64,000 nt of DNA from an uncultured Candidatus Binatia bacterium (GTDB lineage Bacteria; Desulfobacterota; Binatia; Bin18): positions 1,568,001-1,632,000 of the forward strand of contig OZ243961.1 in assembly GCA_965214605.1 (NCBI GenBank). The letters run 5' to 3'. Both the position numbers and the translations under genes were made by a program. Under the pieces are notes generated by a model. It searched no databases. It worked only from the letters and a program-made list of their open reading frames with translations, and had not been told where the DNA came from. Below, piece by piece: positions 46,374-63,041 of this stretch (the stretch's first letter is position 1; the number at the start of each line of letters is the position of its first letter).

Positions 46374-46377
46374 ATAG

Positions 46378-46444: not shown

Positions 46445-46452
46445 ACCAAGAG

Positions 46453-46526
46453 GGTGAGTGAAGGGACTTGAACCCTCGACCACTTGGGCCACAACCAAGT
46501 GCTCTACCAACTGAGCTACACCCACC
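46453..46526 (-). tRNA. tRNA-His(GTG)
   Basis: G-1:C73 pair; CTTGG-TTGTGGC-CCAAG. Confidence 0.95.
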
Positions 46527-46529
46527 ATA

Positions 46530-46603
<74 letters not shown>

Positions 46604-46651
46604 CCTCGCCAGCAGAGAGTCTGAGGACTCCCCTCTCTAGCATTTTTTCCA

Positions 46652-46725
46652 TCGGGGCGAGCCGATTTGAACGGCCGACCCCCTGCTCCCAAGGCAGGTG
46701 CGCTACCAGGCTGCGCTACGCCCCG
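46652..46725 (-). tRNA. tRNA-Pro(TGG)
   Basis: CGGGGCG acceptor stem; CCTGC-CTTGGGA-GCAGG. Confidence 0.95.
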
Positions 46726-46739
46726 ACCGGAAGAGGTCT

Positions 46740-46799: not shown

Positions 46800-48311
46800 C
46801 TAGCCGAGAAAGAAACGGGTCGAGCGGTCGGCAAAATCAAAAACTGGAGCCCAGTAAACGCCTAAGACAATCGTAGCAACACTTAATAGGGCCAAGATTG
46901 AGCCGTTATGCAGGTCAAGCCTCACCTCGCCCTCTACTCCAACCGGATTGTCAAGAAACATCGCCCTCACAATACGGGCATAGTAGTACAGAGAGACAAC
47001 ACTATTGAGAATGCCGACGACAGCGAGATAGTAGAACTCTTCTTTGATGACCGCGGCAAACAGATAGAACTTGCCGATGAATCCACCTAGTGGGGGTAGA
47101 CCCGTCAAAGAGAACAGGAAAACCCCCATCGCAATAGCCGGCAGCGCTCCCCCACGCCACGCCAGACCCCGGAATCCGTCAAGGTCCTCGCGCCCGGTAT
47201 TATTGGCCACGACAAGAACGACGACAAAAGAGCCCAGAGTCATCAGATAGTAGACAATCAGGTAGAACAGCATCGCCCGCAAACCGTCGTTGCTCAAGAC
47301 CACAAATCCCATCAGGATATAGCCCGCATGGGCGATGCTAGAGTAGGCCAACAGACGTTTCACATTGCTTTGATTCAGCGCAGCTAAATTTCCCAGCGTC
47401 ATGGTGATCATAGCGATCACCAGCATAAACTGCGGCCATTCCACTCCGGGCAGGAACTGCCAGACCCCATTGTCACCCAGCTGCGAGAGAGCGGGGTAGA
47501 AGAAGCGTATCAGCAACGCGAATCCGGCCGCCTTTGAGCCAACCGCCAAGAAGGCTGTGACCGGAATAGGCGCGCCGTGATAGACATCGGGGGCCCACAT
47601 ATGGAAAGGCACGGCCGAGATTTTATAGCCAAATCCGGCCAGAATGAGCACGAGCGCAATGAAAACCGTTAGTTGATCGGGGTTACCCTGAAACAGAGCG
47701 GTATTAATCTCAGCATAGTCCAGGCTGCCGGCCAGACCGAAAATCCAGCTCATGCCATAGATCATCGTGCCCGAAGCCACCCCCCCATAGATCAGGTATT
47801 TCAGCGCAGCTTCGCCAGAGCGACGGTTCTGCCGCAGATAGCCAGTGAGGATATACGAGGTGAGGCTGACAAATTCGAGCGCCACATAGGCAATCAGTAA
47901 ATTTGTCGCCGAGGCCATGAAAAACATGCCTAGGGTGCTAGCCAACAGGATGGCGTAATACTCGCCCTGATCGGAGTCACGGATCTCTCGTGAGCTCAAA
48001 GACATCCAGATCGCTCCCACGGCAGATAGCGACAGGATCACCTTGAAGAAAATCGCAAAATTATCAATCGCCACCATGCGGTGAAACAGCCAGCCTTCAC
48101 CAGCTCCGGGAAGACCAGCAATCAGGCGAAACCCAAACACGGACAGCCCGGAGGTAAAGACGAGGGCCATGGTCACGCCAATCAGGGCAACATTTCCCAA
48201 CCGTTCCTTTTCTTCAACGAACAGATCTGCAATGAAAATAACCAGAATGGCCAGGACGAGAATCCCTTCAGGGTAGAAATACGGGAGGCTCTCAATACTT
48301 CCAAGATTCAT
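46800..48311 (-). CDS. nuoN: NADH-quinone oxidoreductase subunit N
   Basis: EAALKY, KISAVPFHMWAPDVY, KRLLAYSSIAHAGY. Confidence 0.96.
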   Translation of the reverse strand: MNLGSIESLPYFYPEGILVLAILVIFIADLFVEEKERLGNVALIGVTMALVFTSGLSVFGFRLIAGLPGAGEGWLFHRMVAIDNFAIFFKVILSLSAVGAIWMSLSSREIRDSDQGEYYAILLASTLGMFFMASATNLLIAYVALEFVSLTSYILTGYLRQNRRSGEAALKYLIYGGVASGTMIYGMSWIFGLAGSLDYAEINTALFQGNPDQLTVFIALVLILAGFGYKISAVPFHMWAPDVYHGAPIPVTAFLAVGSKAAGFALLIRFFYPALSQLGDNGVWQFLPGVEWPQFMLVIAMITMTLGNLAALNQSNVKRLLAYSSIAHAGYILMGFVVLSNDGLRAMLFYLIVYYLMTLGSFVVVLVVANNTGREDLDGFRGLAWRGGALPAIAMGVFLFSLTGLPPLGGFIGKFYLFAAVIKEEFYYLAVVGILNSVVSLYYYARIVRAMFLDNPVGVEGEVRLDLHNGSILALLSVATIVLGVYWAPVFDFADRSTRFFLG

Positions 48312-48341
48312 AGTACGCTCCGCGGGCTTAGACCTGCGCGG

Positions 48342-49883
48342 CTAACGGAGCGCAACCGCGCCGTCCGAGACCGCCGCCTCGATAAGACTGTTTAAATGCT
48401 GGAGCGAAGCATTCATCAGATCCAGGACGGCGTGCGGGTAAACCCCGAGGATAATCACAATCGCCCCTAGTGGGACCAAGGTGCTGAGTTCGCGATTCGA
48501 GATCTCGCTCAGATGCATCTCTTCATAGTCATCCCTGGGCTGACCAAGGAACATCTGTTGGATCGTCCACAGCAGATACGCAGCGGTAAAAATGATGGTT
48601 ACTGCGCCCAAGATAGTGGGAATCTTATACTGCTGCCACGCTCCAAGCAGCACCAGAACCTCGGAGATAAAGGCTGACAGTCCAGGTAACCCCATCGCAG
48701 CAAAGAAGGCCAGGGCGACGACCCCAGTATAGACGGGCATGACTGAAGCAAGTCCACCAAAGCCATCGATCCGGCGATGATGGGCGCGATCATAGATCAC
48801 CCCGACCAATAGGAAGAGCATGGCGGTAATCGTTCCGTGGTTAAACATCTGGAGCACCGCTCCGTTGATGCCCTGGGGGGTGAAGGATGCCATGCCCAGC
48901 ATGACATAGCCCATATGGCTGATGCTGGAATACGCCACCAGCTTTTTCAGGTCTTTGGGTTCATTGAAGCATTGGGCCAACGCGCAGAACGCTCCGTAAA
49001 TAATATTCCAGGCACCAAGCGCGGCCAGAAAATAGGGAGCGAGCAGAAAGGTTTCTGCCGGTAACAACGGATAATTAATCCGCAGAATGCCATACGTACC
49101 CATTTTCAGCAGCACTCCAGCCAGAATAACAGAAATAGCCGTTGGGGCTTCGACGTGCGCATCGGGCAGCCAGGTATGCAGAGGAAAGGCCGGAATCTTG
49201 ACCGCAAAATTGATGAAGAGTGCAACCCACAAGATCTGCCCCATGGTCATGCCAAACAGGACCGGATCAGCCCCGAACGTCTTTGCCGCCTCGGGAAGCT
49301 TGGTCAGATCAAAAGAGAAGCCGGACTGGAAGTAGAAGACGAGCATGGCGACGAGCATCAGCACGCTGCCGAACATCGTGTACAAAAAAAACTTGATCGC
49401 CGCGTACTCCCGACGCGGCCCTCCCCAGATACCGATCAGAAAGTACATCGGGATCAGCATCAACTCCCAGAAGATGTAGAACAGAAAGAAGTCTAGGGCG
49501 CAAAACACGCCAACCATTGCAGTGTCAAGCAGTAAAAATAGGGCAAAATAGGCTTTAACCGCCCGGTCGATCTCCCAGGAGGCCAGAATGCAAATAGGAC
49601 ACAGCAGTACCGACAGGAGCACCATGGTGATGCTCACTCCGTCAATACCTACAAAATAGTAAATATTAAACGAGGTAATCCACGGTACCTGGACCACAAA
49701 CTGTAAGCCGGTATTGGAACCGTCAAAGGCCGCATACAGGTAGATACCACACAGCAGGGGAGGAATGGTAAATCCCAGAGCAACCCTTTTGATCAGCTCA
49801 TGCGCCTGGCTCGGCAGACACCACAGAGCGATCATCCCTAGCAAGGGGAAGAAAATAATCAGCGTTAACACATAACTTTCCAT
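48342..49883 (-). CDS. nuoM: NADH-quinone oxidoreductase subunit M
   Basis: FWELMLIP, PLHTWLPDAHVEAPT, LLKMG. Confidence 0.96.
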   Translation of the reverse strand: MESYVLTLIIFFPLLGMIALWCLPSQAHELIKRVALGFTIPPLLCGIYLYAAFDGSNTGLQFVVQVPWITSFNIYYFVGIDGVSITMVLLSVLLCPICILASWEIDRAVKAYFALFLLLDTAMVGVFCALDFFLFYIFWELMLIPMYFLIGIWGGPRREYAAIKFFLYTMFGSVLMLVAMLVFYFQSGFSFDLTKLPEAAKTFGADPVLFGMTMGQILWVALFINFAVKIPAFPLHTWLPDAHVEAPTAISVILAGVLLKMGTYGILRINYPLLPAETFLLAPYFLAALGAWNIIYGAFCALAQCFNEPKDLKKLVAYSSISHMGYVMLGMASFTPQGINGAVLQMFNHGTITAMLFLLVGVIYDRAHHRRIDGFGGLASVMPVYTGVVALAFFAAMGLPGLSAFISEVLVLLGAWQQYKIPTILGAVTIIFTAAYLLWTIQQMFLGQPRDDYEEMHLSEISNRELSTLVPLGAIVIILGVYPHAVLDLMNASLQHLNSLIEAAVSDGAVALR

Positions 49884-49918
49884 GGAGACTCCTCAAGCTT
49901 CCTCGAGCCTCACCGCCC

Positions 49919-52108
49919 TCAAACAGTATTCTCCTGGGTCGGCGCCGGACGGGCTGGACGGCGGGGAGCGAACAGCGCAATCAAACCGATCACCACCAGC
50001 ACGACAACGAGGGTGAGAGCGACGTTGATCAGCATCTGAGGCGCCAAGCGCGGCAGGAACTGCGCCACCGCTACACCGCCAACAATCACGTATAAGTAGA
50101 CATTAATGCCGCCCGTTTGGACCCGACGGAGACGATTGCCTATGGCAAAGGTCGCATTGGCGGTAATATTAATAAGCCCGTCAATAATACCATTATCAAA
50201 CATGCCAACGATCGACCCGACCCCAGATATGACCTTCGCCGTCCCATCCACAATGCCGTCAATGACGATCCGATCAAAGGCCGACCACAGCCGTGACACA
50301 AAGAGCGAAAAGCGAACGAAGGTCGCCGCGTAGATCTCGTCAATATAGTACTTATTAAAAACGGTCGTATACAGCCATCCCCCGCCCACCGACGCGAACA
50401 CGTCTGGCGACAGGGTCTTCCAGTAGTACAGTCTGGCCGACAGAAAGACGCCCAACAGGGCAATCCCCACCGACGCCAACATCAACACATACTCCATGAC
50501 AGGCGCCCCGTGACCGTGCGCCGCCCCAGCGTCATGCCCGCTGACGTGACCCGTCCCAGCAAAAACCGGCTCCAACCACTGCTCAAAGCGCAGACTCCCA
50601 CCTAGGGCGTGAGGGATACCTAATAGGCCGACCAGGACTGCACCGGCGGCCAGGACAATAAGCGGATAGGTCATCACCGGCGGAGATTCATGCAGATGTT
50701 CTTGGGTATGGGAGTCGGCCCGATTCTCACCGAAGAAGACCAGGAAAACCTGACGACCCATGTAGAAAGCGGTCATGCCAGCGCCGAGGAATCCTAAAAG
50801 CCACAGCACCTGATGCCCCCCCGAAAAGGTCTTCCACAGAATTTCGTCTTTCGAGAAAAACCCGGAGAAAGGCGGCAGACCCATTAATGCCAGGGTTGAA
50901 ATCAGGAACGTCCAATAGGTGGTCGGCATCTTATCTTTGAGACCGCCCATCTTCCGCATATCCTGCTCATCACCCATAGCATGAATCACGCTCCCCGAAC
51001 CAAGAAACAAGCATGCTTTAAAAAACGCGTGGGTAAAGACATGAAAGAAGGCCGCCGCGTACGCCCCCACCCCAACCCCGAGGACCATATAGCCCAGCTG
51101 GCTGACGGTCGAGTAGGCGAGCACCTTCTTAATATCGTTCTGGGCCAGACCAATAGTTGCGGCAAACACCGCGGTCAGCGCCCCAACCGTGGCGATGATC
51201 TGGAGTGCGGTCGGTGACAGCGAGAACAGGAAGTGCATCCGGCACATCATATAGACCCCGGCCGTCACCATCGTTGCCGCGTGTATGAGTGCGCTGACAG
51301 GGGTCGGCCCGGCCATGGCATCGGGCAGCCACACATAGAGCGGAATCTGGGCGGATTTCCCTGCCGCGCCAATAAACAGAAAGAGGGCAACCAGAGTCGC
51401 AGCAGACACACCGAAAACCGCTACCTGTGGATCAGTGAGGACTCCAGCATGGGCTTCCATCTCCCGGAACACAGCGGAGCCGTGGCCCATAGAGCTGAGA
51501 GCCCAGAAGGCGGTGAAGATACCTAGGGTGAAGCCGGCATCGCCTATCCGGTTGACAATAAAGGCTTTGTTTGCCGCCGAGGTATTGGCCTGCTCCTTAT
51601 ACCAGAAGCCGATCAGCGCGTATGAACACAAGCCGACCCCCTCCCAGCCGACAAACAACAACAGCATATTGTCGGCCAAGACCAGGGTTAGCATGGCAGC
51701 GGTGAACAGATTCAAGAAGGTAAAAAAGCGCCAGTAGGCATCATCATCGTGCATATAGCCGATGGAGTAGATGTGGATCAGCCCACCAATGCCAGTCACA
51801 ACTAGAATCATGACCGCCGAGAGCGGGTCGATCCAAAAGGCGATATTCACTTGCAGATCGCCGAGGTCGATCCAGCGCAGGGTGGTGTCCAGCAGAAAAC
51901 GCTGGGCCGGTTCGAGGTTATACACCTGAACAAAAGCCACCAGCGACAGCACAAAAGATATGCCAACCGCACCAACCGCGATACAGTGATTGGCCGTCTT
52001 GCCAAGATGCTTTTGGATAAGAGCGCCACCTATCCCGTTGATGATGGCCCCCAGCAGCGGGAAGAGGACGATCCAGCGCAAATACGAGACAAGGACGGGA
52101 TGCTCCAT
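49919..52108 (-). CDS. nuoL: NADH-quinone oxidoreductase subunit L (extended HL helix, extra C-terminal TM)
   Basis: GWEGVG, KSAQIPL, WLPDAMAGPTPVSALIHAATMV, HAFFKA. Confidence 0.96.
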   Translation of the reverse strand: MEHPVLVSYLRWIVLFPLLGAIINGIGGALIQKHLGKTANHCIAVGAVGISFVLSLVAFVQVYNLEPAQRFLLDTTLRWIDLGDLQVNIAFWIDPLSAVMILVVTGIGGLIHIYSIGYMHDDDAYWRFFTFLNLFTAAMLTLVLADNMLLLFVGWEGVGLCSYALIGFWYKEQANTSAANKAFIVNRIGDAGFTLGIFTAFWALSSMGHGSAVFREMEAHAGVLTDPQVAVFGVSAATLVALFLFIGAAGKSAQIPLYVWLPDAMAGPTPVSALIHAATMVTAGVYMMCRMHFLFSLSPTALQIIATVGALTAVFAATIGLAQNDIKKVLAYSTVSQLGYMVLGVGVGAYAAAFFHVFTHAFFKACLFLGSGSVIHAMGDEQDMRKMGGLKDKMPTTYWTFLISTLALMGLPPFSGFFSKDEILWKTFSGGHQVLWLLGFLGAGMTAFYMGRQVFLVFFGENRADSHTQEHLHESPPVMTYPLIVLAAGAVLVGLLGIPHALGGSLRFEQWLEPVFAGTGHVSGHDAGAAHGHGAPVMEYVLMLASVGIALLGVFLSARLYYWKTLSPDVFASVGGGWLYTTVFNKYYIDEIYAATFVRFSLFVSRLWSAFDRIVIDGIVDGTAKVISGVGSIVGMFDNGIIDGLINITANATFAIGNRLRRVQTGGINVYLYVIVGGVAVAQFLPRLAPQMLINVALTLVVVLVVIGLIALFAPRRPARPAPTQENTV

Positions 52109-52111
52109 AGC

Positions 52112-52435
52112 TTAGCCCTGCAGACGGTCGGTTGCCTCAACGTCAATCGTTGAAAAGTTTTGGTAGATGCCAAGCACGATCGCTAAGCCGATCACGGCTT
52201 CCGCGGCCGCCAGCATAATCACAAAGACCGAGAATACCTGACCGTCATACTCGCCAGAAGAGTAATGCGAAAAGGCGATATAGTTGATATTGGCCGAGTT
52301 CAAGATCAGCTCCACACCGAGCAGAATCCCGATCGCGTTCCTGCGGGTCAGAACACAATAAAGGCCAAGCGCGAAGATGATCAAACTGACGAGCAAAAAG
52401 TGGCGGAGCCCGATAGCGAGCAGAACTTCGTCCAT
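52112..52435 (-). CDS. nuoK: NADH-quinone oxidoreductase subunit K
   Basis: RRNAI...VELILN...AAAEAVIGLA. Confidence 0.96.
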   Translation of the reverse strand: MDEVLLAIGLRHFLLVSLIIFALGLYCVLTRRNAIGILLGVELILNSANINYIAFSHYSSGEYDGQVFSVFVIMLAAAEAVIGLAIVLGIYQNFSTIDVEATDRLQG

Positions 52436-52515
52436 AACCGTCCGTTCAGCGTAGAAGGTGAGAGAAAAGTCGTCCCCTCATAAAGGGGAATGGGCAAAAA
52501 ATCAAGGGAGGTCGG

Positions 52516-53025
52516 TTACGATGTCGGCGTCTGTCCGCGGATTTCCTTGCGCGATATGACGATCGCCCCAATTAGTGCCACTAACAGCACGACCGATGCC
52601 AGTTCAAAAGGCAAGATATACGGGCCCAGGAACGCCTGCCCAATACCAGCAGTGGTCGGTTCAGCCGACGTCGTAGCGAGGTGGCTCCAGTTCGCCCCGA
52701 CCACACACGTCCCCATAACCCCGGTGACAAGGACTACAAAGATCAGCGCCGGGACAGGCCCGACCACGCGGTTTGATATGGCGACATCAGAAATACGGTG
52801 GGTCAGCATGACCGCGAAAATCAGCAGTACCAGAATCCCACCAACATAGGTGAGGATTTGGACAATGGCGACGAAGTCCGCTGCCAACATGGCGTACATG
52901 CCAGCCACCCCGAGCAAAGTCCCGAGTAAGGCAAAGGCTGAATAGACCAGGTTTCGTGAAAAGGCAACAATAGCGGCCGAGCCAATGGTCACCCCGGCAA
53001 TCAAATAAAAGACCAGTGCACTCAT
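52516..53025 (-). CDS. nuoJ: NADH-quinone oxidoreductase subunit J
   Basis: QILTYVGGILVL, PFELASVVLL. Confidence 0.95.
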   Translation of the reverse strand: MSALVFYLIAGVTIGSAAIVAFSRNLVYSAFALLGTLLGVAGMYAMLAADFVAIVQILTYVGGILVLLIFAVMLTHRISDVAISNRVVGPVPALIFVVLVTGVMGTCVVGANWSHLATTSAEPTTAGIGQAFLGPYILPFELASVVLLVALIGAIVISRKEIRGQTPTS

Positions 53026-53057
53026 AATAGCGGTTCTCGGGCTCTGCCCCCCGCGCT

Positions 53058-53663
53058 CTAGGCTGCGTTGTCGGACGCTTTTTCGGCTTCTTCCTGTCGG
53101 GCAGCCTTATATCTTTTCATATCAATCGGCTCCGCATAATCCGCGATATAGGCTAGACCACGTTCCAAAATCGGAGCAATTGCAGGATCGGTTTCTTCCC
53201 CCTTTTTGGCCTTATAGGCAGCAACCGGGGCGGCCACATAGTGGCGAATCAAACTTTCCAGGGAGTAATCGGCGCCTTCAAACTCGGTCGTATGGTGAAT
53301 CGATCCGGTTGGACAGGCTTCGCTGCATAAGCCGCAGTACATGCACTTGGCAATATCAATGTCAAAGCGGACAAGGTCCATCTGACGGGTTTTCGGATCT
53401 TTTGGAGCGTCAATAACAATGCAGTCAATCGGACACGCCCGCTCACAGGCCAGACAGCCGGTACAAATTTCGAGATCAACCGCCAAAATGCCCCGATAGC
53501 GGGGAGGGAGGGTATCCTGAACCCGGACAGGTGTGCGGTCCGGATACTGGATGGTGTACGGCTTACGTACAAAATGCGAACAGGTGATGCTCATCCCCTC
53601 AAAAATCGTGGTAACCGCGTCGGAGAGATTTTTGAAGTAGCGACGAACGCTCGTATTCGCCAT
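53058..53663 (-). CDS. nuoI: NADH-quinone oxidoreductase subunit I (2x[4Fe-4S])
   Basis: TIQYP, CTGCLACERACP, CMYCGLCSEACP. Confidence 0.95.
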   Translation of the reverse strand: MANTSVRRYFKNLSDAVTTIFEGMSITCSHFVRKPYTIQYPDRTPVRVQDTLPPRYRGILAVDLEICTGCLACERACPIDCIVIDAPKDPKTRQMDLVRFDIDIAKCMYCGLCSEACPTGSIHHTTEFEGADYSLESLIRHYVAAPVAAYKAKKGEETDPAIAPILERGLAYIADYAEPIDMKRYKAARQEEAEKASDNAA

Positions 53664-53672
53664 ACCACACTC

Positions 53673-54860
53673 CTAAATAGCCGGGTTAAAGTACAGCTCA
53701 GGCCGGGCGCGCCGGATATGGAAAACGACCCGTCGAAAGAACTGCACGACAATGACGACAAACACTAGGCACATCAGATACCGCAGCCAGCTACTGCCGT
53801 GCGGCCAGATAACCATGAGGACTGCCGTGCCCACAATATTGATGAAGCCAATCGGCACCAAATACTTCCAACACAGCGACATCAGCTGATCGACCCGAAC
53901 GCGCGGCAGGGTTGCCCGCAGCCACATGGCAAGAAATGCCCAGAAGTAGGACTTGAGGAAAAACACCGCGAACTGCGAAATATTCAGCAGCACGACATTG
54001 TCGGTCCAGATCGGCACATGCCAACCACCCAGAAACAAGGTCGTCATCACCGCCCCGATCACATACAGCGTACCCCATTCGGCCAGGAAGAACAGCGCAA
54101 AACGTATTCCGCTATATTCGGTCGCAAAGCCGGCTACCAACTCAGATTCGGCTTCCGGAATGTCGAATGGGGTACGGTTCGCTTCGGCCAGAGCCGACAC
54201 ATAGAAGATCAGGGCGGCAATAAAGGTGAACGGGTTATGAAACGCGTACCAATCCCACGGAGCCCAGCCCTGCTGCTGGATAATGCCCTGCATGCTCAGC
54301 GTACCGGCTAGCAAAACAATGGGGACAATGGCCAATCCGGCCGGGATTTCGTAGCTGATGACCTGAGCAGCAGAACGAATCCCGCCTAACAACGACCATT
54401 TGTTATTCGACGCCCAGCCCGCCATCAGCACCCCAACCACCGACAGAGCGGTCATGGCTGTCAGGTACAGAATACCCACGTTTAGATCGGCAATGATCAG
54501 ACTGCTGCTAAAGGGCACAACCACAAAGGTAGCGACAAAGCCCCACACCAGCAGATAGGGGGCAAACCGAAACAATGGACGGTCGGCGGCGTCAGGAACA
54601 ATGTCCTCTTTGAGGATATTCTTGAGCCCATCGGCAATGCCCTGCAACACCCCTTGGGGACCAACTCGGTTCGGCCCGATGCGTGACTGAATACGCGACC
54701 ACACCCGACGCTCAAGCCAGACCGTGATCGGCACCATCGGCATCACAAAGCCAAACACAAGGATCAGCCCGAACACCAGCATTCCCCCGGCATACACCAC
54801 GTCTGCAGGCACCCCGGCAAACCACCCGTTGGTCATTAATCTGTCAAAGAGTCCCTGCAT
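53673..54860 (-). CDS. nuoH: NADH-quinone oxidoreductase subunit H
   Basis: GPNRVGP, ADGLK, NRTPFDIPEAESELVAG. Confidence 0.97.
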   Translation of the reverse strand: MQGLFDRLMTNGWFAGVPADVVYAGGMLVFGLILVFGFVMPMVPITVWLERRVWSRIQSRIGPNRVGPQGVLQGIADGLKNILKEDIVPDAADRPLFRFAPYLLVWGFVATFVVVPFSSSLIIADLNVGILYLTAMTALSVVGVLMAGWASNNKWSLLGGIRSAAQVISYEIPAGLAIVPIVLLAGTLSMQGIIQQQGWAPWDWYAFHNPFTFIAALIFYVSALAEANRTPFDIPEAESELVAGFATEYSGIRFALFFLAEWGTLYVIGAVMTTLFLGGWHVPIWTDNVVLLNISQFAVFFLKSYFWAFLAMWLRATLPRVRVDQLMSLCWKYLVPIGFINIVGTAVLMVIWPHGSSWLRYLMCLVFVVIVVQFFRRVVFHIRRARPELYFNPAI

Positions 54861-54915
54861 GGCGTCGCTCTGCCTACCCTACTCGTCCACTTTTGTCTAG
54901 GTCACCAACCGACGG

Positions 54916-56070
54916 CTAGCGGTCGACCTCCGGCGCGACCACATCAAAACTGGCAATCAGGGCAATCAGGTCGGCGATCATCAGGCCCTGGCTGACTTTA
55001 TCAACAATACTCATGGCAGAGAACGAGCCGGTTCGGATCTTGGTCCGGTACGGAAACTCAGTCCCGTCACTCACCACGTACCAGCCCATATCGCCCCGCG
55101 AGCCTTCAATCCGCACATAGACGTCGCCGGCCGGCGGCTTGAGCTTACGCGGGACTTTTGCCAACACCGGCCCATCGGGGATCATCGCCAGACACTGTCG
55201 TACAATTTTGCAGCATTCCTTGAGTTCTCGGATACGGGTCATATAGCGGTCAAAACAGTCGCCCAGTTGACCCATCTCCCCGGTGCCGACCGGAATATCA
55301 AAATCTAGCTCCGAATAGATCGAATACGGCTCATCACGACGCACGTCGTATTTGATCCCGCAGGCGCGCAGATTTGGTCCGACCAGATTATAGTTAATCG
55401 CGTCCTCTCTGCTCACCACCGCCACATTGGCTAAACGTTCCACATAAATCTTGTTGTACGAGATGAGGTCGTTATACTCGTCAACCAATGGCTCAAACTG
55501 ATCCACAAAGGCGAGGACGTTGTCAGCATAATTCGGCGGCAAATCCCAGGCCACACCACCGACTCGCATATAGTTGAAGGTGAGTCGCGCCCCACATAAC
55601 TCTTCTAGCAGATTGTTAATTTTCTCCCGCTCACGGATGGCGTGCAGAAAAGGCGTATAGCCACCGATATCCATGACCATCGTCCCGACCGAGAGCAAAT
55701 GGCTCGCCATCCGGCCCAGCTCACAAGCAATCACCCGACAGAACTCACCCCGTCTGGGCACCTCAATACCGGCCAGCCGTTCGCACGCCATACCCCAGCC
55801 CTGGTTACACTGCATGGCCGACACATAATCGACCCGATCAGTGTAGGGCATAAAACCGTGGTAGCCGACCTTTTCGGAAATTTTTTCAATGGAGCGATGG
55901 AGATAGCCGATGTCAGGAATAGCGGTGCGCATGACCTCGCCGTCCGCCTTTACCACAAAGCGCAGCACGCCGTGCGTGCTCGGGTGCTGAGGGCCCATAT
56001 TCAGGGTCATTTCTTCGGTGGCCAGTCCCTCTCCACGTTGGACCTCAACCTCATAACCTGCCAGACTCAT
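54916..56070 (-). CDS. nuoD: NADH-quinone oxidoreductase subunit D
   Basis: [26 protein letters not shown]; no NiFe CxxC ligands. Confidence 0.96.
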
Positions 56071-56129
56071 ACCATTCTCCTGTGGTCAGCGGTTTTGACG
56101 AACAATGCTCAGATTCGAGCCAAACCGTG

Positions 56130-56636
56130 TCACTTGAGCAGACTCTCGCGCCGGGTGCTAATGCCGTGGTACTCTTCGGGCTCCACAAAATCTTTGCGTA
56201 GCGGATGCCCAACCCAGTCTTCCGGCATGAGCAGACGGCGCAGATCTGAATGGCCGGTGAAATTGACCCCAAGCAAGTCGTAAATTTCACGCTCTAGCCA
56301 GTTTGCCGCCTTCCACACGTCTTCAACCGAAGGCATCTCGGGCGCATCCCGCGGGACATCGACTTTTAGCACGATCTGATGCCGGTGGGGGTATGAGTAC
56401 AGGTGCAGCACTACCTGGATTTTCGCGTCTTTGATGAGATCGACGCCTGACATGTTTGACAAACAGTCAAAGGCCAAATCAGCCTCCTGTTTGAGAAAAC
56501 GGCAGATGTCGGCCGTCAGCTTGGGCTGAATACTACAGTACGGATTCAGCGCTTCCTCGTCACGGGAGACAAGAGCCTCGGCACCAAAACGCTCGGTGAT
56601 TTTATGGAAAATATCGGTTGGGGACATAGAAATCAC
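56130..56636 (-). CDS. nuoC: NADH-quinone oxidoreductase subunit C
   Basis: ANWLEREIYDLLG, GHPLRKD. Confidence 0.95.
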   Translation of the reverse strand: MISMSPTDIFHKITERFGAEALVSRDEEALNPYCSIQPKLTADICRFLKQEADLAFDCLSNMSGVDLIKDAKIQVVLHLYSYPHRHQIVLKVDVPRDAPEMPSVEDVWKAANWLEREIYDLLGVNFTGHSDLRRLLMPEDWVGHPLRKDFVEPEEYHGISTRRESLLK

Positions 56637-56669
56637 ACAGACAGGAGGTCAGCTGTGGGCCACATGGGA

Positions 56670-57173
56670 TTATGCTGCTTGGATTTGGGCCGGCGCTTTT
56701 TTCACCAACCAGCGTTCTTGCATCATCTTTTCCTGGAGTTTGAGCAAACCTTCGGTCAAAGCCTCGGGTCTGGGTGGACAGCCAGGTACGTACACATCAA
56801 CCGGAATCACTTTATCCACCCCGTCACATACCGAGTAGGCGAGCTGAAACAGACCTCCACAGTTCGAACAGCTGCCCATCGAAATCACATATTTTGGATC
56901 GGGCATCTGGTCGTACAGCACCTTGGTGCGGAGCGCCATTTTGAGGGTCAGTGTTCCAGCAATAATCATCATGTCGGACTGTCTCGGTGTCGCCCGAGGC
57001 GCCGCTCCAAACCGCTCTAAATCGGCCCGTGGTCCACCGGTTTGCATCATCTCGATGGCACAACACGCCAGACCAAACAGCATATACCACACCGAAGATT
57101 TCCGAGTCCAATTCAGAACCTCGTCAACCTTTGTGGTAATCACCATCTCCGGTACACTATTGACAAGCGACAT
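56670..57173 (-). CDS. nuoB: NADH-quinone oxidoreductase subunit B
   Basis: [23 protein letters not shown]. Confidence 0.96.
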
Positions 57174-57207
57174 GAATCCTCCTCAATACGCTCTCGAGCG
57201 CAGTCTC

Positions 57208-57654
57208 TTAGGCAGCTCTGGGGAGCGCCGGTTCCTCTTCTGTCTGCTGGACCTGGAGGCGCTTAATCCATTCCAGATCCCGCTTCTTCCAGACATACAC
57301 CAGCCCGACACCAAGAATCCCGAGAAAGAGAAAAATCTCCGTCATGGCAAACAACCCGTTGCCAGCCAGCACAAAATCCCGAAATGCCACCGCAACCGGA
57401 TAGATAAAGGCGACCTCAATATCAAAAATCACAAAAACAAGAGCGATAAGATAAAACCGGATATTGAAGTTAATCCACGCACTGCCGGTCGGCAGCTCGC
57501 CGCACTCGTAGGTGGTTAGCTTTTTGGCCTCAGGGTTATGGGGGCGCAAAAAGCTGCCTAGGATAAGATGAAAGGCACCCAGACCGAGCCCGATGAGGGT
57601 GAATACTAAGACATTGCCGAAATTAAAATACACCGCTTTACTCCTGACCGACAT
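57208..57654 (-). CDS. nuoA: NADH-quinone oxidoreductase subunit A
   Basis: YECG, FVIFDIE, YVWKKRDLEW. Confidence 0.95.
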   Translation of the reverse strand: MSVRSKAVYFNFGNVLVFTLIGLGLGAFHLILGSFLRPHNPEAKKLTTYECGELPTGSAWINFNIRFYLIALVFVIFDIEVAFIYPVAVAFRDFVLAGNGLFAMTEIFLFLGILGVGLVYVWKKRDLEWIKRLQVQQTEEEPALPRAA

Positions 57655-58222
57655 TCACGCCGTTTTCCTGCATCTCCCCACCCTGGCCGTTGGAGCAGGT
57701 GGGAGCGGTGCCAAACGGCGCGGCTTCTCTATATCCTCCCTGTCCACGATGGGCAAGCTCTTCCCGGAGGCCGGCCCTATCAGCAATCTGCCCGAGCGAG
57801 ACACTCGCTAGGTATTCGGCAAGCCGCCGCTGGGCTTCGCCCCAGACAGAGATCTGGTGACACACCTCGCAGTACCGACATACCTGTTTACCCTCTTCGA
57901 GGCATTCCATCAGCAGGAGAGGGCCTTCAAGGCATTCATAGACCTCCTTGAGGTTGATGCACGCAGCCGGTTTCTTGAGGCTGAAACCGCCTCGGGCTCC
58001 CATATACGACTCCACCAGATTGCCTCCGGCGAGTTGCTTCATAATTTTCGACAGAAAATGGGAGGGAATATCCTGTTTGATCTGGATTTCGCGCCGAGAA
58101 ATGACTGTTCCATACGGCTGAGCAGCGAGGTAGGACAGGGCTCGTACGGCATAATCGACCCGTTTGCCGATGTTCATCAGCGAGCTGCGCTCCACCGATT
58201 TCGGCTTGCCTGTCTTGCTCAT
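57638..58222 (-). CDS. Rrf2-family transcriptional regulator with Fe-S-type Cys motif
   Basis: DYAVRAL, wHTH, GARGGF, C-x7-C-x2-C-x2-C; alternative start at 58177. Confidence 0.92.
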   Translation of the reverse strand: MSKTGKPKSVERSSLMNIGKRVDYAVRALSYLAAQPYGTVISRREIQIKQDIPSHFLSKIMKQLAGGNLVESYMGARGGFSLKKPAACINLKEVYECLEGPLLLMECLEEGKQVCRYCEVCHQISVWGEAQRRLAEYLASVSLGQIADRAGLREELAHRGQGGYREAAPFGTAPTCSNGQGGEMQENGVNVGQE

Positions 58223-58233
58223 ACCTCTTGCCT

Positions 58234-58764
58234 TTAGGCAGCCATCCCTCGAAGCTTTTGCTTCTGTGAATGAATCTTTCTCTGGAGGGCCATCAAGGCA
58301 TCCAGGACATTTTCTGGACGGGGCGGACAGCCCGGCACATAGACGTCGACCGGAACGATGCGGTCAATACCAGCCACGGTGGTGTAATTGTCATAAAATC
58401 CACCGGTCGAGGCACACGCCCCAAAGGCCATCACCCATTTGGGCTCGGTCATTTGTTCGTATACCCGCTTTAGAATAGGCGCCTGACGACACGTCACCGT
58501 CCCTATCACCATGAGCAGATCGGCTTGACGCGGACTAAAACGCGGCAGTAGGGCCCCGAAGCGATCAATGTCGTAGGGTGTCATCGACAGGGCCATATAT
58601 TCCATGGCACAGCACGCCGTGGCAAACGGATACGGAAAGATAGAGTATTTCCGCGCCCAGCCGATGGCCTTGTCAATTTGGGTGAGGACAACCGCGTCGC
58701 CAAGGAGGGCTTCATCCCCGCCTTGCAGACGCGGGGTCGTGGTCAAGGTCTGGTTATGTTCCAT
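58234..58764 (-). CDS. nuoB: Second, divergent NuoB paralogue
   Basis: [31 protein letters not shown]. Confidence 0.92.
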   Translation of the reverse strand: MEHNQTLTTTPRLQGGDEALLGDAVVLTQIDKAIGWARKYSIFPYPFATACCAMEYMALSMTPYDIDRFGALLPRFSPRQADLLMVIGTVTCRQAPILKRVYEQMTEPKWVMAFGACASTGGFYDNYTTVAGIDRIVPVDVYVPGCPPRPENVLDALMALQRKIHSQKQKLRGMAA

Positions 58765-58799
58765 TGTCTGACCTCGTGGTCCAGCGTGGACGCTGGCAG

Positions 58800-59204
58800 C
58801 TACGCAGCCTCATCGCCCGACTTGTCGTCCTTCTCACGCCAGTCTGCCACAGCTGATTTAATCGCGTCCTCGGCCAAGACCGAGCAGTGAATCTTGACTG
58901 GCGGCAGGGATAATTCCTTCACAATCTCGGTATTTTTGATCTTGTAGGCTTCTTCGACCGTCTTTCCTTTGACCAGCTCGGTCACATAGCTGGAAGAGGC
59001 AATCGCCGAGCCGCAGCCGAAGGTTTTGAAGCGGGCATCCTCAATGACCTCGGTGTTAGGGTTGATTTTGAGCTGCAGCTTCATCACATCCCCACACTCA
59101 GGGGCACCAACAACACCGGTGCCAACATTATCTTCGTCTTTGGTAAAACTGCCAACGTTCTTGGGATTTTCGTAGTGCTCAAGTACCTTATCTGTGTAGG
59201 CCAT
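58800..59204 (-). CDS. iscU: Fe-S cluster scaffold IscU
   Basis: GAPECGD, FKTFGCGSAIAS, LPPVKIHCS. Confidence 0.96.
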   Translation of the reverse strand: MAYTDKVLEHYENPKNVGSFTKDEDNVGTGVVGAPECGDVMKLQLKINPNTEVIEDARFKTFGCGSAIASSSYVTELVKGKTVEEAYKIKNTEIVKELSLPPVKIHCSVLAEDAIKSAVADWREKDDKSGDEAA

Positions 59205-59267
59205 AAGCTGCTCCTTTCGGGACACGCCCCTCGTCATAAGACTCAGAATATGTCAATTCGTGTCGCT

Positions 59268-59298
59268 AAATATAGACTGTTAGAGTCTAAGTTGTCAA
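59268..59298 (-). promoter_or_regulatory. sigma70 promoter with embedded palindromic operator (site 1, upstream of iscU)
   Basis: Minus strand TTGACA-N18-TATATT; TAGAC-N7-GTCTA at 59273-59289; repeated at 63011-63041. Confidence 0.8.
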
Positions 59299-59318
59299 CG
59301 TGGCCAAGGTCAGACTTC

Positions 59319-60038
59319 TTACCACTTCTCATATTTTACCGCGCGGCGCTCATAGCCGGCGGTCCGCAAGAGGTCACGGAGCTGTAAGATCCGATTGCCA
59401 ATCCCGCAAATATAAAAATGGCGAGACCAGTCAGTGTTGCGTTTGACATAGCACGCTTCGACATGAGTGAGAAGATCGCCCCGTAGTCCGTCCCAGTGCA
59501 GAGAGGGGTGACGCAAAAGAGGATGGAAGGTCAACACGGCGTGCGAGCGGGCCCACCCTTCCAACTGTTCCCGATACAGCAGATCTTGTTCGTGGGCCGT
59601 TCCATAGACCAGGACAAGGGGCCGCTGCGGACCACTATCAAGGGCCCGCCGAAGCATGGGCCGAATAGCCGCAATCCCAGTCCCCTCGGCAATAAAGACG
59701 CACTCAGCCAGCGGGGCTTTGTCAAGCACAAAAGCACCCCAGGGACCGGAAAAAGACAGCGTATCGCCGAGTCTTCGGGTGAATAAATAATGCGAACCCG
59801 GTCCACCGGGTACACAGTTCAAACAGATTTCCAGCAGCTCTTCATCTTCGGGATTCGAAGCAATCGTATACGCCCGAGTCAAAGGTTTCCCTCTTCCCGG
59901 TAACTGAAAGGACAAGAACTGGCCCGGTCTGAAGCTCAGACGTTGGTCGGCGTGGAGGCGCAGAAAAAACGAACGGGTATCGGGCGCATGCTCAACAATG
60001 CGCTCAATGACAGCCTGGTAGGGTGGAGCCTGTTGCAT
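59319..60038 (-). CDS. FAD/NAD(P)-binding oxidoreductase, ferredoxin-NADP reductase-like
   Basis: PGQF, RAYTIAS, GTGIA, YICG, C-terminal YEKW. Confidence 0.88.
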   Translation of the reverse strand: MQQAPPYQAVIERIVEHAPDTRSFFLRLHADQRLSFRPGQFLSFQLPGRGKPLTRAYTIASNPEDEELLEICLNCVPGGPGSHYLFTRRLGDTLSFSGPWGAFVLDKAPLAECVFIAEGTGIAAIRPMLRRALDSGPQRPLVLVYGTAHEQDLLYREQLEGWARSHAVLTFHPLLRHPSLHWDGLRGDLLTHVEACYVKRNTDWSRHFYICGIGNRILQLRDLLRTAGYERRAVKYEKW

Positions 60039-60059
60039 GGAGGAGGAGAAGCTGGACTC

Positions 60060-60413
60060 TTACACCTGTTGGTTAATCGTATACTTGGGGACGAGGATGG
60101 TGATATGCCCAGCCTCAATGACAGCCTGACAGCCAAGCCGAGAGCTGGGCGTCAAACCCGGCGCTTTATCCAGCATATCCTCCTCAGATTCTTCGCTCTC
60201 CGAGAGATATTCTTCACCAGCCTTGATAATCACATGACAGGTCGTACACGCGCAGTGACCGCCACAAGCGTGTTCAAGCGTGAGCTGATGGCCGAGGAGT
60301 ACATCCAGAATCGACCCCGGTTGTCCGTCGTCTTGAAAAGGCGCATCGGCCGGATCGAATTCGATGAGCCGTTCCGGATCACCTGTCTCGAAGAGCACCC
60401 GTAGCGTAGCCAT
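60060..60413 (-). CDS. fdx: ISC-type [2Fe-2S] ferredoxin
   Basis: HACGGHCACTTCHV...EEDMLD...SRLGCQ. Confidence 0.92.
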   Translation of the reverse strand: MATLRVLFETGDPERLIEFDPADAPFQDDGQPGSILDVLLGHQLTLEHACGGHCACTTCHVIIKAGEEYLSESEESEEDMLDKAPGLTPSSRLGCQAVIEAGHITILVPKYTINQQV

Positions 60414-60420
60414 CGGGGTA

Positions 60421-61470
60421 TCACAACTGCTGCAGCACCTGCTCAGCAATACTCACAAACCCCCGACTCTGGGGGTGATCAGGCTGAGAGACGACGAGGG
60501 GCGTGCCGCTATCCCCGCCGGAGACAATATCGCGTAGCAGCGGAATTTCGCCCAGCAGGGGCACCTGAAACTGCTCGGCCACCTGCCTGCCACCCCCCTG
60601 ACTAAAAACGTGGGCATGGTGCCCACACGAACTGCACACCAGATAGCTCATGTTTTCAACCACCCCTAGCACGGGCACCTTGACCTCTTCGAACATTTGC
60701 ACGCCACGACGGACGTCCATCAGGGCCACGTCTTGAGGGGTGGTGACGATCACACCGCCCGAAAGCGGAGCTTTTTGCACAATACTCAGCTGAGCATCGC
60801 CCGTACCAGGCGGCAGATCTATGACCAAAACGTCCACCTCTCCCCACTCGACATTCCGCAGAAACTCGGTCAGCAGTTTATCGACCATCGGCCCGCGCCA
60901 CACCGCCGCCTGCTCATCGGCCAGCAGGAAGCCCATGGACATCACTTTGATACCATACTTTGTGAGGGGAATAATCTTTTTTTCTGGGGTGCTTGTAGGC
61001 CGCTCCTTTAGGCCTAGCATCAGGGGCACACTAGGACCGTACACATCAGCATCCAAAATACCGATGCGTTTGTTGATCGAAGCCATCGCTGCCGCCAGAT
61101 TCACCGATACGGTGGATTTTCCGACTCCCCCCTTCCCGCTCGCCACCGCAATAATGTGCTCAATGCCCGGAAGACGAGGGGTGGACGGGTGACCCTGAGG
61201 TTGAGTCCGAGGCACCGGTCGCTCGTCGCCACCAGGCTGCAGGATCTCGACCTCGATCGGCAACGCAATCTGGGACGCCAGCGTGGCCTTCACGTCGCGC
61301 CGGATCTGCTCAATAACGTCTTTATTTCCAGTCGAGGGCGCAACCTGGACCACAACCCGTGACACTCCAACCGCAATGTCCTTGACCATCCCAAAGGAAA
61401 CAATATCGCGGCTAAATCCGGGATATTTAACATTTTTGAGGAACTCCATCAGTTCTTGCGGGCTTGGCAT
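60421..61470 (-). CDS. Mrp/ApbC (NBP35 family) Fe-S carrier ATPase, paralogue 2
   Basis: N-terminal DUF59-like domain, GKGGVGKST, DLPPGTGD, ENMS...CSSC. Confidence 0.95.
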   Translation of the reverse strand: MPSPQELMEFLKNVKYPGFSRDIVSFGMVKDIAVGVSRVVVQVAPSTGNKDVIEQIRRDVKATLASQIALPIEVEILQPGGDERPVPRTQPQGHPSTPRLPGIEHIIAVASGKGGVGKSTVSVNLAAAMASINKRIGILDADVYGPSVPLMLGLKERPTSTPEKKIIPLTKYGIKVMSMGFLLADEQAAVWRGPMVDKLLTEFLRNVEWGEVDVLVIDLPPGTGDAQLSIVQKAPLSGGVIVTTPQDVALMDVRRGVQMFEEVKVPVLGVVENMSYLVCSSCGHHAHVFSQGGGRQVAEQFQVPLLGEIPLLRDIVSGGDSGTPLVVSQPDHPQSRGFVSIAEQVLQQL

Positions 61471-61479
61471 ACGTCTCTC

Positions 61480-61794
61480 TTATTCTTGTCGGGACTCTTT
61501 TGGCCGGCTTTCCGCGTCTTTCCCCAGTTCTCTCAGGTAGTCAAAAGTATAGATACCATTCTCGCAGTCTTTCCAGACGATATTCAGGGCGTAGTTACCA
61601 ACCGGGCGGATATCCACCAGCTGCGGGTCGTCGACAGTGACAAAATGACGCTCCCCGCTATGGCCTTGGCACATCGCACACGGGCACCAGCCGCGCAGAT
61701 AGGCGAACGAAAACCGGCTCAGCTCGTCATCATCCCACAGGATACGCAGCTGCTTTTCTTCGTCGATGGGGGTCACCAATGTTGGTTTGGGCAT
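61480..61794 (-). CDS. DUF971 / GBBH-like N-terminal domain protein
   Basis: LRGWCPCAMC, VGNYAL, GIYTFDYL. Confidence 0.88.
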   Translation of the reverse strand: MPKPTLVTPIDEEKQLRILWDDDELSRFSFAYLRGWCPCAMCQGHSGERHFVTVDDPQLVDIRPVGNYALNIVWKDCENGIYTFDYLRELGKDAESRPKESRQE

Positions 61795-61826
61795 ATCCGT
61801 TCGCCTTACATGTATAGCGCAGAGAG

Positions 61827-62906
61827 TTAGTGTACGGACTGACCCCGGCGTTGAACATTGAGTTCATCGGCTTCCATAACACGCTGGGCAATCGCCCTGA
61901 ACTCCTGCGAAACAGGATGGTCAGGATTGGCAAGAATCAGCGGATTGCCACGATCACCGCCGAGCCGCAAATCTTCAACCAGTGGGACCTCGCCCAATAC
62001 AGGCAGGCCGATCTTTTTCGCCCCGCCCCGGCCAAAAACCTCTTCCTGATAATTGCACTCAGGACAGATAAACAGACTCATGTTCTCAATGACGCCCAGA
62101 ATGGGAACCTGCACCTGCCTGAACATGGTAATACCACGCCGCACATCGAGCAGCGCAACATCTTGCGGGGTGGTGACCACTACCCCGCCGTTGAGCGGAA
62201 CTTCTTGGGCCAGCGTCAGAGCAATATCACCCGTGCCCGGTGGCAGATCGACAATCAAATATTCCAACTCACCCCAAATCACGTCACGCAAAAACTGACG
62301 GATAATACCCATCACGATCGGCCCTCGCCAAATGACCGGGGACTTGTTATCCACAAAAAACCCCATGGAAATGAGGCGTATTCCATGTTGTTCAACCGGA
62401 TAGATCTTCTTGTTGTGCCCTGCCCGAGGCGTCGCCTGGGTCCCCATCATGAGGGGGACACTCGGCCCATACACATCCGCATCAAGCAGTCCGACAGTCT
62501 TGCCTAAAGCCCCCAGCGCCAAGCTCAGGTTCACCGCCACCGTGGACTTGCCAACCCCGCCCTTGCCGCTGGCAACCGCAATAATACGCTGTACGCCAGC
62601 CACCACCGTGGGCTCTTTCATTTGGGGTCTCGCCTGCGCTCCGTGCTGCGCGTGCGGCTGGGCTTGCCCGCCGGGGATATGGACGTGCACCTGTTTAACC
62701 CCTGGGGTGGATGACAGCGCCGTCGTAATCCGGGCTCTCAGGTGCTGCAGTACCCGCTCCTGCGCGTTCGTTGTCCGTAGATGGACAACGACCGTACCGT
62801 CTCGAATGCCGATACTGCCAACTAGGCCGAGCGTCACGATGTCGTGTTTTGAACCGGGATACTCAATCTGTGTGAGCTGATCGCGAATTTCCTCTTCGCT
62901 TGGCAT
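61827..62906 (-). CDS. Mrp/ApbC (NBP35 family) Fe-S carrier ATPase, paralogue 1
   Basis: N-terminal DUF59-like domain, GKGGVGKST, WRGP, DLPPGTGD, ENMS...CPEC. Confidence 0.95.
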   Translation of the reverse strand: MPSEEEIRDQLTQIEYPGSKHDIVTLGLVGSIGIRDGTVVVHLRTTNAQERVLQHLRARITTALSSTPGVKQVHVHIPGGQAQPHAQHGAQARPQMKEPTVVAGVQRIIAVASGKGGVGKSTVAVNLSLALGALGKTVGLLDADVYGPSVPLMMGTQATPRAGHNKKIYPVEQHGIRLISMGFFVDNKSPVIWRGPIVMGIIRQFLRDVIWGELEYLIVDLPPGTGDIALTLAQEVPLNGGVVVTTPQDVALLDVRRGITMFRQVQVPILGVIENMSLFICPECNYQEEVFGRGGAKKIGLPVLGEVPLVEDLRLGGDRGNPLILANPDHPVSQEFRAIAQRVMEADELNVQRRGQSVH

Positions 62907-63010
62907 ACGTCTTCCTTGAGAAACCGGGTCGTAGGCCCAGAGAAAGAGAGCTCGCCTCTCTTTTCTTTTTTCAGGTTTTCAGTATCTCGGAGAGCTTTTT
63001 CATGAGCTCA

Positions 63011-63041
63011 AAATATAGACCTTAAAGGTCCATATTGTCAA
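63011..63041 (-). promoter_or_regulatory. sigma70 promoter with embedded palindromic operator (site 2, upstream of mrp)
   Basis: Minus strand TTGACA-N18-TATATT; TAGAC-N7-GTCCA at 63016-63032; same layout as 59268-59298. Confidence 0.8.

Follow-up and report, generated by a model that had tools for sequence, protein, structure and literature searches.

Complex I-like enzymes of eleven subunits, such as those of Desulfitobacterium and Dehalococcoides, the cyanobacterial NDH-1 and the archaeal Fpo, are encoded in one operon without the genes of the N-module (PMC11238625, PMC3144371). In the building of iron-sulfur (Fe-S) clusters, the canonical isc operon has the order iscR-iscS-iscU-iscA-hscB-hscA-fdx-iscX. 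Typically, isc operons include a gene for a ferredoxin that supplies electrons to IscS/IscU and is reducible in vitro by a ferredoxin-NADP reductase (PMC8593673). The HCF101/Ind1/ApbC carriers of Fe-S clusters are P-loop ATPases with a single CxxC motif, and HCF101 also has an N-terminal DUF59 and a DUF971 domain (PMC7980591), while in E. coli the production of complex I depends on iron through Fur and RyhB (PMC8593673). Relatives of these systems lie together in a run of 19 genes found in an uncultured Candidatus Binatia bacterium, in a window of 64,000 nucleotides (the whole stretch of DNA analysed, G000:C1:1568001-1632000) of a 4.37 Mb genome that is 99.99% complete. The run extends on the minus strand from position 62906 down to 46800 and holds genes for Fe-S assembly, a nuoB gene (nuoB2), a gene for an Rrf2-family regulator and an operon for an 11-subunit complex I. 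It looked like a ready answer to the question of which donor supplies electrons to an 11-subunit complex I, but comparison with relatives indicates that it is not that.

The best explanation, to which we give a probability of about two in three, is that the run consists of two functionally distinct units tied together by one regulator. The first would be half of a housekeeping ISC system together with the nuoB of another, NADH-type complex I, and the second the operon of the 11-subunit enzyme. The comparison does not support a complex I that is self-contained, fed by ferredoxin and served by a separate assembly line. Three features are unusual: the Rrf2 regulon joining Fe-S assembly and complex I genes, the nuoB moved into that regulon, and the candidate ferredoxin reductase within an ISC gene set.

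The Regulator and its Operators

Genes of the run were identified by their Pfam domains, and equivalog-level tests compared NCBIfam scores with the model cut-offs. All 19 genes are on the minus strand, and their spacing ranges from -17 nt, where rrf2 and nuoA overlap, up to 81 nt between FNR and iscU, which confirms the co-directional, short-gap run of the initial annotation. The two matching promoter/operator sites that it listed were also recovered, as near-identical sequences before mrp1 and iscU. The first, P1 (63041-63012), is upstream of mrp1, and the second, P2 (59298-59269), lies inside the 81-nt FNR-iscU gap. Both match the sigma-70 consensus at 11 of 12 positions (TTGACA, 18 nt, TATATT), have identical -35 and -10 hexamers, and carry a GAC-N7-GTC palindrome of the Rrf2-operator type in the 18-nt spacer. 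They are the two best of 12 promoter-like sites in the region, where 10.6 would be expected by chance. The strict operator motif has two matches in the whole genome, P1 and P2, and was not found at the iscS locus (see later).

The regulator gene, rrf2 (57638..58222, minus strand), has a Pfam Rrf2 match of 110.3 bits (cut-off 30) and probably starts at Met16. Three cysteines of the encoded protein (C107, C115 and C121) occur without exception in all 21 orthologs compared, the most distant of which has 36% identity. Among relatives, the P2 promoter-operator is kept in all 14 family sequences that hold iscU. P1 was found within 260 nt of mrp1 in five of six same-genus sequences and further upstream in the sixth (L045); it is also present in three loci of other genera (L048, L050, L051), whereas the motifs gave no match to it in L047 and L052. 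The same layout of -35, palindrome and -10 occurs in two further families: in f2 it precedes a 4Fe4S-ferredoxin gene followed by nuoB2-rrf2-nuoA-N (L087, near 11934), and in f4 it precedes rrf2-sufC-sufBD-sufS (L054, near 13082). In the latter locus (L054 12554-13082, genome G035), an Rrf2 ortholog with 61% identity heads the suf genes behind the same operator. Since rrf2 leads a suf gene set there, and the genome of the window has no SufBD match, the regulator appears to have stayed with whichever Fe-S system a lineage uses.

The placement of the operator between -35 and -10 implies repression, as judged from the sequence. Rrf2 probably binds a cluster and probably sits on the palindrome of both promoters. 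If it works as IscR does, the protein would act as a repressor while carrying a cluster, and a shortage of clusters would release both promoters. P1 would then drive mrp1-DUF971-mrp2-fdx-FNR, and P2 would drive iscU-nuoB-rrf2. A scan for sigma-70-type consensus sites, which is a crude method and covers that type of promoter only, detected no promoter-like site between P2 and nuoA, and neither a promoter-like nor a terminator-like site in the coding (minus) strand of rrf2. Because rrf2 overlaps nuoA and lacks such sites, nuoA-N is probably read from P2. The complete 11-subunit operon, which has no N-module genes, is fused to the 3' end of rrf2. An Fe-S-sensing regulon, as had been proposed, gains support from this comparison: the three cysteines are invariant, the operator is present at the iscU promoter in 14 of 14 sequences, the strict motif has no match in the genome outside the two promoters, and rrf2 and nuoA overlap by 17 nt. 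The result would be a self-regulated feedback loop in which Fe-S supply is matched to two large Fe-S consumers. A regulator of the Rrf2 family, with a well-defined operator found across the lineage, probably joins genes for Fe-S assembly and for respiratory complex I in an uncultured phylum.

The nuoB2 Gene and a Scattered NADH-type Complex I

Between iscU and rrf2 lies nuoB2 (58234..58764, minus strand), which the initial annotation listed in one run with the genes of the 11-subunit complex. A survey of the genome speaks against its being a second NuoB of that complex. A second nuo locus (C1:3098553-3108060) has the order A-C-D-E-H-J-K-L-M-N, and there is no room for nuoB in it, as nuoA ends at C1:3098960 and nuoC starts at C1:3098983. 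The nuoF and nuoG genes are at C1:1559832-1562736, 6 kb before the first base of the window, and a further nuoI is at C1:440981-441565. Exactly two NuoB genes were found genome-wide, both in the run, and no third. With nuoB2, the NADH-type gene count closes (10 + 2 + 1 + 1 = 14), and the other enzyme has 11 self-contained genes. In Binatia, the NADH-type complex I is encoded at four places. The main genomic paper on Binatota reports that all Binatota encode complexes I and II (PMC8262859), and the present distribution is a warning that nuo genes should not be counted by locus.

Relatives give the same picture. Genome G011, which is 100% complete, has one NuoD and one NuoB. The latter is of the nuoB2 type and is encoded within the Fe-S module, and nuoB is again missing from the nuo operon of this genome. 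Among 15 genomes from other Binatia families, the gene of the nuoB2 type is the direct neighbour of nuoF in eight (76-85% identity), shares a peripheral-arm operon with nuoF in five (57-64%), and is apart from it in two. Three-gene operons, nuoB-nuoF-nuoG, standing apart from other nuo genes, are found in L068-L073 (genomes G038, G030, G033, G040, G028 and G036), an unusual way of encoding the NADH-type complex I. Orthologs of the nuoI at C1:440981 are near nuoB-F-G in three of these loci (L070, L072 and L073), and L083-L085 have peripheral-arm operons with the order nuoB-G-(I)-C-D-(E)-F. A maximum-likelihood tree of NuoB (41 rows) has two clades, both with 100/100 support, one of 17 sequences encoded in 11-subunit operons and the other of 24 sequences that belong to the nuoB2 type. 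Every genome searched carries the 14-subunit type. The four cluster-binding cysteines of NuoB (columns equivalent to C51, C52, C117 and C146) are invariant in seven of seven aligned sequences, and both types keep them.

Taken together, the lack of nuoB in the second locus, the presence of only two NuoB genes in the genome, the gene content of G011, the adjacency to nuoF and the tree identify nuoB2, on sequence grounds, as the N2-cluster subunit of the NADH-type 14-subunit complex I. It is the only NuoB available to that enzyme, and would be the missing subunit of a complex whose other genes are scattered over the nuoACDEHJKLMN, nuoFG and nuoI loci. The gene appears to have been relocated from beside nuoF-nuoG into an Fe-S assembly operon, a move that suggests a coupling between production of the N2 subunit and the supply of clusters. 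Among the titles and abstracts listed for literature on Rrf2, nuoB, iscU and complex I, none reports a nuoB gene located within an isc operon.

The scattering of these genes also allows a different view, in which the 11-subunit enzyme borrows the separately encoded NuoE, NuoF and NuoG, giving two NADH dehydrogenases with different membrane and Q modules. In keeping with it, nuoF-nuoG occupy a separate locus without linkage to either membrane-arm operon, about 52 kb from nuoN in the genome of the window, and the NuoB encoded in the 11-subunit operon has its closest match (202.5 bits) in the NuoB of NADH-type enzymes from Paracoccus and mitochondria. However, nuoE is part of the other nuo locus, in other families nuoF and nuoG share operons with the nuoB2 type and not with the 11-subunit type, the count of 14 closes exactly for the other enzyme, and the NuoD of the 11-subunit operon is of the short type (best NCBIfam model PRK12322). 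Such borrowing is considered distinctly unlikely. A second NuoF-like protein of 589 aa (C1:1672498-1673664, Complex1_51K 147 bits), encoded 40 kb past the end of the window, is outside both complex I sets.

Conservation of the Run in Relatives

The prediction that the cluster is conserved in relatives holds in part; in some of them its two halves are separate. The full run is kept in five of five same-genus loci (L041-L045) and in two of three loci of genus g8 (L047 and L048). The third g8 locus (L046, also L020; genome G014) has no mrp-to-FNR block upstream of iscU, and its FNR is 437 kb from iscU. In five loci of genera g9, g5, g10 and g4 (L049-L052 and L060), nuoA-N is absent, and the module from mrp1 to rrf2 leads straight to the tRNA cluster and tig; contig ends truncate L049 and L060, in which part of the module is visible. 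For gene calling in GC-rich relatives, a third-position GC filter was used, because choosing the longest ORF gave false frames on the opposite strand.

The downstream boundary of the run is a conserved cluster of five tRNA genes, Pro-Arg-His-Lys-Leu (46171..46726, minus strand; called with ARAGORN and Rfam), and beyond it are tig, clpP and clpX; upstream of the run is a gene for an aldo-keto reductase. The tRNA cluster follows nuoN in L041, L045, L047, L048 and L053, and follows rrf2 directly in L049, L050, L051, L052 and L060, so that the 11-kb nuoA-N block is a clean presence or absence between rrf2 and tRNA-Pro. Since the NuoB tree unites the genera that lack nuoA-N here as one clade within the family, a single loss of the block would be the simplest history. 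The nuoB2 gene adjoins rrf2 in 22 of 24 family relatives and in the single f2 genome; in the two exceptions, with genomes 74% and 88% complete, neither gene was found. The f2 genome (G025) has the order 4Fe4S-ferredoxin-nuoB2-rrf2-nuoA-N-tRNAs, and IscU, FNR and Mrp were not found there. In more distant families, the 11-subunit operon is elsewhere and its upstream genes vary.

That the nuoA-N block comes and goes as a unit beside the tRNA cluster would also fit an adjacency that is only historical, with nuoA-N read from a promoter of its own that was not recognised, and with Rrf2 regulating the Fe-S genes and itself only. The crudeness of a scan limited to sigma-70-type consensus sites leaves room for such a promoter. 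However, this is unlikely given the 17-nt overlap of rrf2 and nuoA, the lack of promoter-like or terminator-like sites in the coding strand of rrf2, the retention of the rrf2-nuoA junction in two families (f1 and f2), and the operator of family f2, which precedes an operon without any ISC genes.

Genes for a FecCD-type permease and an ABC ATPase were seen directly upstream of the 11-subunit operon or of the nuoB2-rrf2 leader in L075 (G038), L078 (G028) and L087 (G025), loci that belong to three different families; L087 also has a gene for a periplasmic binding protein beside this transporter. A FecCD-type iron transporter as part of the unit was considered and rejected, its ortholog being far away in the genome of the window (C1:3653847-3656652).

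Fe-S Assembly Genes and a Candidate Ferredoxin Reductase

The upstream part of the run begins with mrp1 (61827..62906, minus strand, as are all the genes that follow), encoding an Fe-S carrier ATPase of the Mrp/ApbC/NUBPL type with an N-terminal DUF59. It matches Pfam ParA/NUBPL (PF10609) with 324.6 bits, and also FeS_assembly_P. A second Mrp/ApbC-type carrier, encoded by mrp2 (60421..61470; Pfam 341.6 bits), is 45% identical to the first. Each has a Walker A motif and a single CxxC, which in Mrp1 holds the only cysteines of the protein, and their scores against NCBIfam ApbC (327.8 bits for Mrp1 and 322.6 for Mrp2) are both below the cut-off of 348. Between them is the gene for a small DUF971 (GBBH-like_N) protein (61480..61794; PF06155, 77.3 bits) that carries a CxCxxC motif; HCF101 ends in this domain, also with the motif (PMC7980591). 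The two carriers and the DUF971 protein would hand [4Fe-4S] clusters to client proteins in general.

The fdx gene (60060..60449) encodes a [2Fe-2S] ferredoxin, probably of the ISC (vertebrate) type. Its cysteines, at positions 62, 68, 71 and 107, have the spacing C-x5-C-x2-C-x35-C, which we take to mark vertebrate/ISC-type ferredoxins, and its best NCBIfam match is fdx_isc (TIGR02007), with 105.7 bits. The true start is probably about 12 codons downstream, because relatives have 117 aa. A search of its own genome (blastp, E 1e-5) found, besides itself, one weak match, a domain inside a protein of 592 aa. The iscU gene (58800..59237) encodes a protein with three cysteines that scores 213.7 bits against the NCBIfam IscU model (TIGR01999), above the cut-off of 192.4, and is the single NifU_N/IscU match in the genome; a second IscU copy occurs elsewhere in G020 and G024. 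In two genomes of family f8 (L058 and L059), iscU adjoins fdx, and nuo genes are absent from the 20 kb examined.

No match to SufBD was found in the genome of the window. An isc locus at C1:3179009-3183378, 1.55 Mb from the run, has the order iscS-iscA-hscB-hscA-iscX, with scores above the cut-offs (in brackets) for IscS, 642.6 (548), HscA, 734.5 (620), IscX, 84.1 (40.4), and HscB, 66.2 bits (46.75). Relative to the canonical isc operon it lacks a regulator, iscU and fdx, and the run in the window supplies exactly these three. The single IscU, the lack of SufBD and the distant isc locus that misses precisely these parts argue that the Fe-S genes of the run are the other half of a housekeeping ISC system, and not parts dedicated to the 11-subunit complex. 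The suggestion that Mrp, IscU and Fdx are an assembly line of that complex was not borne out, as they include the only Fe-S scaffold found in the genome and its only ferredoxin of probable ISC type.

The last gene of the P1 group, FNR (59319..60038), encodes a flavoprotein of the FNR superfamily with FAD_binding_6 and NAD_binding_1 domains (Pfam). In NCBIfam it is matched best by the reductase domains of BenC, AntC and MmoC, with scores of about 100 bits that are all far below the cut-offs. It is likely to be an NAD(P)H:ferredoxin reductase, which would reduce the ISC-type ferredoxin with NAD(P)H, and the ferredoxin would in turn feed electrons to cluster synthesis on IscS/IscU. A bacterial ISC gene set with a candidate ferredoxin reductase next to fdx is of interest, given that the consulted part of the source describes this reaction, with a ferredoxin-NADP reductase, only in vitro (PMC8593673).

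The initial annotation proposed a different function, in which FNR and ferredoxin replace NuoEFG as the electron input of the 11-subunit complex, with electrons passing from NAD(P)H through Fdx to quinone or in the opposite direction, and in which IscU and the two Mrp proteins are assembly factors dedicated to this complex. The genes are indeed co-directional, tightly spaced and under one common operator, and the full arrangement is kept in the five same-genus and two g8 loci. Ferredoxins are thought to be the electron source of 11-subunit enzymes (PMC11238625), and Ind1, a relative of Mrp, is specific to complex I in mitochondria (PMC7980591).

The distribution of FNR does not follow this model. 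It was compared in 41 genomes, in which FNR and IscU were scored at E ≤ 1e-30 and the 11-subunit type by its NuoB or NuoD; the genomes are related to each other, and the co-occurrence counts are descriptive only. FNR and IscU were both found in 24 genomes and neither in 13, giving concordance in 37 of 41; the four discordant genomes are G018 (84% complete), G017 (88% complete), G031 and G039. No FNR match was found at this threshold in 11 genomes that are at least 95% complete and have the 11-subunit complex (G008, G025, G027, G028, G029, G030, G031, G035, G036, G038 and G039), while nine have FNR without the 11-subunit complex having been found (G010, G011, G015, G016, G019, G021, G022, G023 and G032). 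With these two groups, the phyletic pattern tracks IscU and speaks against FNR as a required partner of the 11-subunit enzyme, leaving its proposed role as a stand-in for NuoEFG unsupported. The probable ISC type and single occurrence of the ferredoxin, the single IscU scaffold, the isc locus lacking exactly iscU, fdx and the regulator, the assignment of nuoB2 to the other complex, and the varied neighbours upstream of the 11-subunit operon in other families also count against the model, and we regard it as very improbable. To judge from the comparison, ferredoxin and reductase appear to serve the building of clusters and not to be a new electron input.

A compromise between the two would have a single Fe-S-sensing Rrf2 repressor tying Fe-S supply (IscU, the ferredoxin and its reductase, and both Mrp carriers) to the largest demand in the cell, from the N2 subunit of the NADH-type complex I and from a cluster-poor 11-subunit complex I, with the FNR-ferredoxin pair doubling as an electron input of the latter at low iron, under scarcity of clusters. 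The second part is weakened by the many genomes that have the complex and no FNR match, and the co-repression of nuoB2 fits a switch between isoforms poorly, so that this dual role also seems very doubtful.

The 11-subunit Operon

The nuoA-N block (46800..57654, minus strand) holds 11 genes in the order nuoA-B-C-D-H-I-J-K-L-M-N, and all eleven Pfam domains are present. The genes are nuoA (57208-57654), nuoB (56670-57173), nuoC (56130-56636), nuoD (54916-56070), nuoH (53673-54860), nuoI (53058-53663), nuoJ (52516-53025), nuoK (52112-52435), nuoL (49919-52108), nuoM (48342-49883) and nuoN (46800-48311). No Complex1_51K, 2Fe-2S_thioredx or NuoG domain was found in the run with Pfam, in agreement with the reported lack of nuoEFG there. 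The NuoB of this operon scores 299.8 bits against NCBIfam PRK14818 (cut-off 255), and NuoI has two CxxCxxCxxxC motifs.

NuoL is modified, as had been noted, with 729 aa compared to the 626 aa of its paralog. Internal insertions precede and interrupt the part that aligns with the lateral helix, and the C-terminus is extended by about 68 aa, in which a crude hydropathy scan shows two strongly hydrophobic segments; orthologs have 712-740 aa. The two NuoL paralogs of the genome (window 49919-52108 and C1:3103215-3105095) are 54-57% identical, while the other subunit pairs have 35-46% identity, and the higher value may reflect an exchange of NuoL or a later duplication. Adjoining ORFs for a NuoL/MrpA-like protein of 925 aa and a NuoM/MrpD-like protein of 496 aa are found outside both nuo loci (C1:3800759-3805431), and may represent an Mrp-type antiporter or another complex I-related module.

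Weight of the Evidence

Several points weigh against two units under an Fe-S-sensing repressor. The regulator is not an IscR equivalog, with 63.1 bits against NCBIfam IscR (TIGR02010; cut-off 207.55), and the ferredoxin (105.7 against a cut-off of 132.1 bits) and both Mrp proteins are likewise below the cut-offs of the fdx_isc and ApbC models. Of the five listed sequencing runs that contain this stretch, none is registered as RNA, and co-transcription and repression rest on the gene overlap, the lack of a promoter-like site and the analogy to IscR. The operator was searched for with degenerate motifs, on which its uniqueness depends, and weaker sites elsewhere could have been missed; the kinship of the compared genomes means that co-occurrence counts overstate independence. 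The link of nuoB2-rrf2 to nuoA-N appears older than that to the ISC genes, since it is present in family f2 and in G008, where IscU and FNR were not found, and for this reason the regulator may be primarily one of complex I rather than of Fe-S assembly. Finally, a housekeeping role of Fdx and FNR may be compatible with a second one as donor to the 11-subunit enzyme.

Comparison with Known Systems

The nuoA-N operon encodes the same eleven subunits as the enzymes of Desulfitobacterium, Dehalococcoides, cyanobacteria and archaea, likewise without N-module genes. It differs from those operons in being fused to an rrf2 gene, in standing behind an Fe-S assembly operon, in sharing the genome with a scattered NADH-type complex I, and in the C-terminal extension of its NuoL. 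All parts of the canonical isc operon are present in the genome, including a ferredoxin of probable ISC type and an Rrf2 protein with three cysteines and an operator that overlaps the promoter, but they are split over two loci, the regulator is no IscR equivalog, and there are additional genes for a candidate ferredoxin reductase, two Mrp carriers, a DUF971 protein and a NuoB of complex I. Mrp1 and the DUF971 protein share with HCF101 the N-terminal DUF59 and the CxCxxC motif; in HCF101 the DUF971 part is a fused domain, whereas here it is a separate gene between two paralogous carriers. Specificity for complex I is a property of Ind1. The Mrp module described here also occurs in genomes that gave no match to the 11-subunit complex, but each genome searched has the 14-subunit type. 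As in E. coli, complex I synthesis would be tied to iron status, but the link proposed here is a direct site for an Rrf2-type repressor together with a gene fusion, and not the small RNA of the Fur/RyhB system.

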